A stretch of DNA of 338 nucleotides from Escherichia coli (GTDB taxonomy: Bacteria > Pseudomonadota > Gammaproteobacteria > Enterobacterales > Enterobacteriaceae), in the NCBI RefSeq assembly GCF_003334355.1, contig NZ_QOWP01000113.1; one strand, 5' to 3'. The position numbers and the translations under genes are program-made. The notes below the pieces were generated by a model. The model was given only the letters and a program-made list of their open reading frames with translations, was not told the origin of the DNA and did not search any database. The first letter of the stretch is position 1. Each line of letters starts with the position of its first letter. Of the stretch, positions 1 to 338 are shown in pieces.

Positions 1-338
1 CTCAGCATGTGGCCGGATAACCGTATCGCCCGTGACGCGCACTATCTTTACCGGTATGACCGTCACGGCAGGCTGACGGAGAAAACCGACCTCATCCCGG
101 AAGGGGTTATCCGCACGGATGATGAGCGCACCCACCGGTACCATTACGACAGTCAGCACCGGCTGGTGCACTACACGCGGACACAATATGCAGAGCCGCT
201 GGTCGAAAGCCGCTATCTTTACGACCCGCTGGGCCGCAGGGTGGCAAAACGGGTGTGGCGACGTGAACGGGACCTGACGGGCTGGATGTCGCTGTCACGG
301 AAACCGCAAGTGACCTGGTACGGCTGGGACGGCGACCG
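1..338 (+). CDS. rhs: Internal fragment (5' and 3' partial) of an Rhs-family YD-repeat protein, conserved core region of a polymorphic toxin; about 112 codons in frame 1
   Basis: Seen in sequence: frame 1 on the + strand has no stop codon across all 338 nt, while + frame 2 stops at TGA 74-76 and + frame 3 at TAA 18-20. The translation contains three YD-repeat motifs: [14 protein letters not shown] (nt 43-84), [12 protein letters not shown] (nt 139-174) and [14 protein letters not shown] (nt 214-255). Established knowledge: the run ...[41 protein letters not shown]... matches my recollection of the conserved Rhs core of E. coli RhsA/B/C-type proteins, upstream of the PxxxxDPxGL core/tip boundary. 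By hand count the GC content is about 62% (209/338), consistent with the known GC-rich Rhs core. Which paralog (rhsA/B/C/D/E or another species' copy) cannot be decided from 338 nt, so the symbol is the generic family prefix only. Confidence 0.92.

Follow-up and report, generated by a model that had tools for sequence, protein, structure and literature searches.

The stretch of Escherichia coli DNA analysed here, 338 nt in its full length and hereafter called the window, lies by sequence within the core of an Rhs gene. For Rhs and Tc proteins, it is established that a cocoon built of YD repeats encloses a C-terminal toxin, and descriptions of E. coli Rhs genes as mosaics, with a GC-rich core and an AT-rich tip, date back to the 1990s. 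As the closest known system, the rhsC locus of E. coli K-12 shares with the window its reading frame, its YD repeats and this mosaic makeup, with 100% identity to a truncated core fragment at that locus and 98.8% to the full-length rhsC gene (WP_000015200.1). We propose, with a probability of roughly 85%, that the window belongs to a clade-I core at the kdp-ybfA-rhsC locus, whose composition was acquired before the diversification of Escherichia, has been vertically inherited, and is now ameliorating.

Several other described systems bear comparison. In the E2865-type arrangement of the same locus, the same tip and the ybfC gene are joined directly, without the ybfB gene or the orphan fragment found in K-12. 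Orphan rhs-CT/rhsI modules of Salmonella Typhimurium LT2 (STM0292) and Dickeya dadantii (Poole et al. 2011, PMC3150448) likewise consist of a 5'-truncated core downstream of a main rhs gene, lack initiation and export signals of their own, and have a small putative immunity gene next to them. Their core is also nearly identical to that of the main gene (522 bp at 95% in LT2, as compared with 1,045 nt at 97.2% here), and in LT2 this much homology suffices for main-orphan rhs fusion (Koskiniemi et al. 2014, PMC3967940). However, these orphans represent another Rhs clade and carry other toxins; toxin and immunity activity and recombination are experimental findings in Salmonella and would be predictions here. 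In the clade-II rhs gene SMA1610 of Serratia marcescens Db11, the core is again richer in GC than the tip (67.7% against 46.4%, and here 61.3% against 41.3%), and downstream partial-core fragments are visible as GC peaks (PMC2935791), though clade and host differ, and the comparison there is of core with tip. Among solved structures, the window can be aligned at sequence level with the C-terminal third of the YD-repeat cocoon in Pseudomonas aeruginosa Tse5 (8cp6; residues 864-940 of 8cp6_B, E = 2.4e-7), in the type VI secretion system Rhs cores of Salmonella bongori and enteroaggregative E. coli (8qjd, 8qjb, and 8qjc), and in Photorhabdus Rhs1 (7q97). These are distant matches only (E 1e-7 to 1e-3), and they say nothing on composition.

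The assignment of the window to the core of a clade-I (RhsA-B-C-F subfamily) Rhs polymorphic-toxin gene follows from two kinds of search. Its peptide matches the NCBIfam model NF041261 ('RHS element core protein') at E = 7e-73 over profile positions 935-1046 of 1,261, and it is the fragmentary nature of the window alone that keeps its score under the cutoff set for whole proteins. In megablast searches of 5,426 complete E. coli genomes, 3,882 contained matches at a median of four places per genome, and 2,333 records matched at 99% identity or better. All of these matches fall under genes annotated as RHS core proteins, some 100% identical to the window, and nearly all are chromosomal (2 of the 14,267 matched places are plasmid-borne). 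The preliminary description, made from the letters alone, had read the window as Rhs core from E. coli, and both searches bear it out.

Composition of the window and the core against the host

The window contains 108 G, 101 C, 75 A, and 54 T, hence 209 G+C (61.8%), and among all six frames it is stop-free in frame +1 only. That frame comprises 112 codons, of which 18 (16.1%) encode arginine (CGG seven, CGT four, CGC four, AGG two, and CGA one), and CGG, AGG, and CGA thus make up 10 of the 18. By codon position, the GC content is 65, 46, and 74% for the first, second, and third, respectively. The hand counts given earlier for G+C (209 in 338 nt, about 62%) and for arginine (18 of 112 codons, with 7 CGG, 2 AGG, and 1 CGA making 10) were reproduced exactly.

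As the host background, we used 190 kb of E. coli K-12 (L001-L004) with the rhs loci masked, a 4% sample of one genome, in which long open reading frames (ORFs) served as gene proxies. Here, the 338-nt non-rhs windows (n=6,854) average 51.9% GC (sd 5.2%, maximum 64.8%), and only 0.47% of them reach 61.8%. Similarly, the third-position GC (GC3) of 74.1% is reached by 1.1% of host 112-codon chunks (mean 57.6%), and with arginine at its host frequency of 5.5-5.6%, 112 codons would contain 18 or more arginines with a probability of 4e-5. The host is not one of 60-65% GC, in which such a composition would be unremarkable.

The anomaly extends over the core as a whole. The entire rhsC core has 61.3% GC against 51.3% in its flanks, and the rhsA core 61.6% against 51.9%, while GC3 in the cores is 71.5-72.1% (rhsC 71.5%) against 57-58% in flanking ORFs (57.2% for rhsC), so the core stands above its flanks by 10 points of GC and 14-15 points of GC3. 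The rhsC tip has 41.3% GC, ybfB 31%, and ybfC 37%, and a sliding GC profile displays two plateaus, at rhsC and at the orphan core, with an AT trough after each. The locus has the layout that had been described for Rhs genes in general, with a core richer in GC than the chromosome and an AT-richer tip, as is also found in the literature (Jackson et al. 2009, PMC2935791).

On codon usage, the measures diverge. CGG, AGG, and CGA are indeed rare in highly expressed E. coli genes, as had been stated, since they account for 3 of the 413 arginine codons in 29 genes for ribosomal proteins and elongation factors, the set that also supplied the weights for the codon adaptation index (CAI). While GC3 and the arginine codons flag the core, CAI does not: the window itself scores 0.338 (9th percentile of host chunks), whereas the core scores 0.405-0.423 (rhsC at 0.405), level with the host median of 0.405. 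The poorly adapted parts are instead the tips (CAI 0.24-0.26) and ybfB (0.15). CAI is likely blind to the core because GC3-rich genes use C-ending and related codons (GAC, TAC, CAC, ATC, and CTG) that E. coli also prefers.

Age of the core and direction of change

A syntenic kdp-ybfA-rhs locus is present in Escherichia albertii. Between K-12 and this sister species, nucleotide identity is 91.7% in the core and 92.6% in the kdp flank (7.2 kb), and the third-position distance is 0.157 in the core as against 0.188 in the kdp genes. A recently transferred segment would be absent from the sister species or discordant with its flank in divergence, and the core is neither. Given this synteny and a divergence like that of kdp, the core was at the locus before the two species split, and the copy is no recent import. 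The caution that the composition is consistent with, and not proof of, a horizontal history was apt, and horizontal spread at this locus is not recent.

To polarise substitutions, we used E. albertii as the outgroup to four E. coli strains and assigned third-position changes by parsimony, with the kdp genes as the control:

Rhs core third positions: GC to AT 46, AT to GC 23; per-site rates 0.056 and 0.082; equilibrium GC3 0.59 against a current 0.745
kdp control third positions: GC to AT 61, AT to GC 48; per-site rates 0.054 and 0.073; equilibrium GC3 0.575 against a current 0.63

The observed share of GC-to-AT changes in the core (0.667) agrees with that expected from the kdp rates (0.683; binomial p = 0.80). 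In this small sample, the core is under the substitution regime of its host, far from equilibrium, and losing GC, which is amelioration. No sign of a GC-maintaining force on the core was seen in this four-strain polarised third-position test.

The proposed history would thus run as follows. High GC, a preference for arginine over lysine, and the CGG, AGG, and CGA codons would be the signature of the whole core, gained before Escherichia diversified and, most simply, in a GC-richer genetic background; we infer that the core began with the composition of a GC-rich donor or ancestor. Since its acquisition, the core would have been inherited vertically at the locus, with a slow loss of GC under the ordinary substitution regime of the host.

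Of the alternatives, the one that fares best, and which we still consider improbable, is that high GC is not an ancestral relic and is actively maintained, either by GC-biased gene conversion among near-identical core copies or by selection. Cores are multi-copy and are known recombination substrates (PMC2935791, PMC3967940), and the high GC is still found in E. coli (GC3 0.716) as well as in E. albertii (0.703). Moreover, a first, smaller control (2.4 kb) hinted at a relatively high AT-to-GC rate in the core. However, this hint vanished with the 7.2-kb control, where the per-site rates of core and kdp are near-identical, and the implied equilibrium GC3 lies far under the current value. Persistence itself needs no special force, because third-position divergence since the E. 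albertii split is only about 0.16, over which neutral decay would probably cost just a few points. Marginally less probable again is a partial version, in which GC-biased gene conversion, acting between the multiple core copies and the orphan fragments, sustains core GC in part. In that case, the 'foreign' look of the core would arise as a side effect of how the family itself recombines. With it goes the related idea that a small record marked circular and described below (NZ_CP054971.1; core fragment, tip, and immunity genes) is a real episomal exchange intermediate.

At the protein level, the core (L001 15370-19110 against E. albertii L006 7241-10981) has 91.9% amino acid identity, next to the 91.7% at the nucleotide level. 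At codon positions 1 and 2, the core has diverged by a distance of about 0.046 and the adjacent kdp genes by about 0.017, while the third-position distance of the core is the lower of the two. This fast protein-level divergence suggests relaxed or diversifying selection on the Rhs shell.

Source of the GC excess

Re-encoded under host codon usage, the window peptide would have 55.2% GC, where the host coding average is 53.2% and the observed value 61.6%. The excess of about 8.4 points thus divides into about 2 from amino acid composition and about 6.4 from synonymous choice, so that about three quarters of it is synonymous. In line with this, GC3 is 74% where the same peptide under host usage would give 56%, and none of 5,000 synonymous resamplings reached the observed GC. 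The 10 rare arginine codons compare with 3.5 of the 18 expected by such resampling (P(>=10) = 6e-4). The arginine content of the window is itself a local peak, within the top 4% of the core's 112-residue windows, the core mean being 9.5%.

In the translated window, the YxYD...R(L/V) motif occurs three times in full and begins a fourth time, in this arrangement:

1..338, + strand: clade-I Rhs core coding segment, frame +1, codons 921-1033 of an RhsC-type full-length protein (about 1,400 amino acids)
40..78, + strand: YD repeat 1, from translation, with motif arginine at residue 24
127..168, + strand: YD repeat 2, TIGR01643 YD_repeat_2x at residues 38-61 (27.6 bits against a cutoff of 15.8), with motif arginines at 46 and 54
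208..243, + strand: YD repeat 3, from translation, with motif arginines at residues 71 and 79
316..338, + strand: beginning of the next YD repeat (WYGWDGD, with RL beyond the window), from translation of the window and the orphan fragment

The segment would accordingly encode about three and a half YD repeats of a beta-cocoon shell around the variable C-terminal toxin. Pfam RHS_repeat matches weakly at orphan residues 43-88, and the Pfam OCRE and teneurin matches on the orphan were disregarded as weak (E 0.04 to 0.12).

These repeats are the starting point for another alternative, namely that the protein imposes GC and arginine richness, the demand of YD shells for glycine, arginine, aspartate, and tyrosine making the DNA GC-rich in any host. 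We regard this as very improbable. The arginines of YD motifs are conserved and 5 of the 18 in the window occupy canonical motif positions, and the first-position GC and the 2 points added by amino acid composition also fit such a demand. However, those 2 points leave most of the excess and the high GC3 unaccounted for, and the other 13 arginines lie outside motif positions. More conspicuously, the Rhs cores of Acinetobacter, Moraxella, and Vibrio have intact YD shells at 35-45% GC, with 3-5% arginine and more lysine. The ratio R/(R+K) stands at 0.84 in the E. coli core, compared with 0.76 in Burkholderia gladioli, 0.59 in Vibrio, and 0.37-0.40 in Acinetobacter and Moraxella. As arginine thus gives way to lysine in step with falling GC, arginine richness is largely part of the same compositional signature, with the requirement of the YD motif a minor contribution.

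For the comparison across hosts, we assembled plasmid tblastn hits and representative proteins with their encoding contigs, which gave the following cores and surroundings:

Acinetobacter plasmid: core 40.2% GC, flank 40.2%
Moraxella bovis, two genes: cores 34.8% and 43.4% GC, flank 37.1%
Vibrio parahaemolyticus: core 45.1% GC, flank 42.6%
Burkholderia gladioli: core 62.1% GC, flank 64.2%
Contig L015 (54% identity): core 57.4% GC, flank about 57%
Contig L016 (45% identity): core 56.7% GC, flank 53%
Contig L020 (46% identity): core 66.8% GC, flank 62%

L015, L016, and L020 hold full-length relatives that are more distant. Three further contigs (L014, L018, and L019) are too short for host flanks, and L021 holds only an AT-rich downstream tip and orphan zone. 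Core and surroundings are usually 0-5 points apart, and the E. coli clade-I core is the outlier at +10. Since the Rhs cores of AT-rich hosts are AT-rich, high GC is not intrinsic to YD-repeat proteins; it belongs to the clade-I core lineage. Rhs genes of the same clade are also reported to vary in base composition between genomes (Jackson et al. 2009, PMC2935791).

The closest relatives of the segment (52-84% identity) have 64-65% GC and a GC3 of 78-87%. One of these GC-rich tiers is a vgrG-linked E. coli subfamily, and two others are not from E. coli; a vgrG neighbour was seen for the sister subfamily only. With sister subfamilies richer still in GC, the trait is older than the split between the subfamilies. 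The title of a 1998 paper by Wang, Zhao and Hill, with its words 'diverged prior to acquisition by E. coli', says the same.

The least credible alternative is that this copy was recently acquired by the host strain, for although its composition is discordant, ISAs1/H-repeat remnants and AT-rich accessory genes adjoin it, and lateral tip exchange is thought to occur (PMC2935791), the site between ybfA and ybgA is occupied by rhs in thousands of E. coli genomes, and the syntenic E. albertii core has diverged no more than the flanking kdp genes.

When genome contigs were scanned with the 112-residue peptide, the only matches were to E. albertii and to three short contigs from Bacillota assemblies. 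The latter (L007, L008, and L009) hold core fragments of 88-100% amino acid identity, one in Jeotgalibacillus (270 bp, coverage 0.77) and two in Bacillota/Oscillospiraceae metagenome-assembled genomes, and they look like E. coli contamination and not true occurrences. On the M. bovis plasmid (L011 7100-22719), the two full-length Rhs genes, of 34.8% and 43.4% GC on a 37%-GC replicon, adjoin Tad-pilus genes and are accompanied by an unannotated core fragment and an orphan; they are possibly a mosaic with separate histories.

Organization of the rhsC locus and implications

In K-12, the exact copy of the window is found in the 5'-truncated core fragment ybfO (L001 19920-21440), where it occupies L001 20001-20338, or codons 28-140 of this orphan. 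The fragment lies 360 nt downstream of rhsC, with ybfB on one side and ybfC on the other, followed by ISAs1/H-repeat remnants. Two kinds of position in the window distinguish or anchor its copies:

78, 210, 255, 261, + strand: diagnostic synonymous sites between the window allele (orphan/E2865 type) and K-12 full-length rhsC, ACA>ACG, AGT>AGC, GTA>GTG, and CGG>CGA, respectively; all third-position and the only four differences from rhsC
7..9 (L001 20007), + strand: first in-frame ATG of the orphan frame, taken by gene callers as the start of a putative truncated ybfO-type product

The homology between the fragment and rhsC begins near L001 19935 and collapses at the core/tip junction (about L001 20920-20980), where the TIGR03696 and PF03527 matches end (orphan residues 277-354 and 250-286, respectively, outside the window in the same reading frame). 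The motif that closes an Rhs-associated core, PxxxxDPxGL, and a variable tip are present in frame downstream, the motif being PISNIDPLGL in RhsC. As an aside, the core of the orphan and of E2865 ends in the variant ...NPVQYIDSMGL, where Ser-Met replaces the canonical Pro-Leu at the autoproteolytic site (L001 20900-20980, orphan residues ~330-354).

Strains 503025 and M8 have the layout of K-12, with full-length rhsC and a downstream orphan. All of the features of an orphan module (a 5'-truncated core, near-identity to the 3' core of rhsC, a tip of its own, and a small downstream gene) are found in these three strains, and the ybfB-orphan junction occurs in 2,628 of the 5,426 complete E. coli genomes, or about half. 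By contrast with the K-12 layout, E2865 has one full-length gene of 1,399 amino acids at the rhsC site, with the identical window at codons 921-1033, and this gene leads directly into ybfC. It has the window-type base at all four diagnostic sites in the window and the orphan-type base at 19 of 19 diagnostic sites from 19944 up to and across the core/tip junction, and over its last 300 residues it does not differ from the K-12 orphan. Separately, the full-length rhsC of 503025 (L023 2370-6563) carries a pseudogene annotation and has an internal stop, whereas both ybfC and the orphan fragment, which lie downstream of it, are intact.

The same sequence is thus met in two states. In K-12-type strains, about 1 kb at 97% identity to rhsC would provide homology for displacement or re-attachment of a tip by recombination, and in E2865-type strains the sequence sits inside the intact gene that bears the tip. 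The orphan state of K-12 and the fused state of E2865 are what is predicted by the displacement model for C-termini, in which dissociated tips have partial cores visible as GC peaks (Jackson et al. 2009, PMC2935791), and by main-orphan recombination in Salmonella. The exchangeable part at the locus looks to be the tip with its 3' core fragment, and not the presence of the core. No Chi site occurs in the window, the closest being GCTGGTGC at position 162, one base off.

As for expression of the orphan, five database proteins (P0001, P0043, P0049, P0093, and P0108) start exactly at query residue 30, the methionine of the window ATG, which in the full-length gene is an ordinary internal codon. 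On reading the sequence upstream of this ATG, no Shine-Dalgarno-like sequence was evident, and a promoter and terminator scan around the orphan start returned AT-rich chance-level matches only and no terminator. In the orphan context, the N-terminal 900 residues of a full-length Rhs protein are missing, and the K-12 fragment is probably silent. Neither ybfB nor ybfC matches any NCBIfam model.

At the K-12 rhsA locus (L002 13500-17040), two more truncated core fragments with internal stops lie downstream of rhsA, interleaved with yibA (HEAT), yibG (Sel1), and a frameshifted Imm57 immunity gene. Jackson et al. (2009, PMC2935791) remark that clade-I loci generally lack dissociated tips; despite this remark, these fragments indicate that the clade-I loci of K-12 do carry them.

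Two small records, both labelled as Klebsiella pneumoniae plasmids, resemble parts of these loci. NZ_CP054971.1 (L029, 2,294 bp, marked circular) contains yhhH, a yibA-like HEAT-repeat gene, an Rhs 3' core fragment (about 450 nt, 94% identical to the clade-I core family), and a toxin tip. Its identity to the part of the K-12 rhsA locus that runs from yibA to the orphan fragment is 98.5%. In content, the record matches the episomal circles of core fragment and tip that have been predicted (Jackson et al. 2009, PMC2935791), but an assembly artefact or contamination by E. coli is an equally possible origin. NZ_CP069827.1 (L028, 2,340 bp, linear, an unannotated FDAARGOS 'plasmid') consists of nothing but Rhs core, at 96% identity to the rhsA and rhsC cores of E. 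coli, and is most likely an unplaced or contaminant contig.

Several points weigh against the history that we propose for the core. By CAI, the core is not atypical of its host. The polarisation has a small base of about 70 third-position changes in four strains, with a single outgroup that is 8% diverged; parsimony may have misassigned some of these changes, and gene conversion among paralogous cores could blur their orthology. Likewise, the comparison across hosts sets plasmid and megaplasmid flanks beside distant Rhs clades at 25-29% identity. No GC-rich donor came to light, and the closest relatives to be recovered were other E. coli subfamilies or contigs with uninformative flanks. Finally, as the window is identical in the K-12 orphan and the E2865 full-length gene, its sequence fits either context.

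The compositional anomaly of the window is real, and it is an already-known hallmark of E. coli Rhs genes, so the window should be presented neither as a new genomic island nor as a transfer of recent date. For the calling of foreign DNA by composition, the locus provides an anomaly that is about three-quarters synonymous and is missed by CAI, in a core that was already in place when E. coli and E. albertii split and whose composition is decaying slowly.

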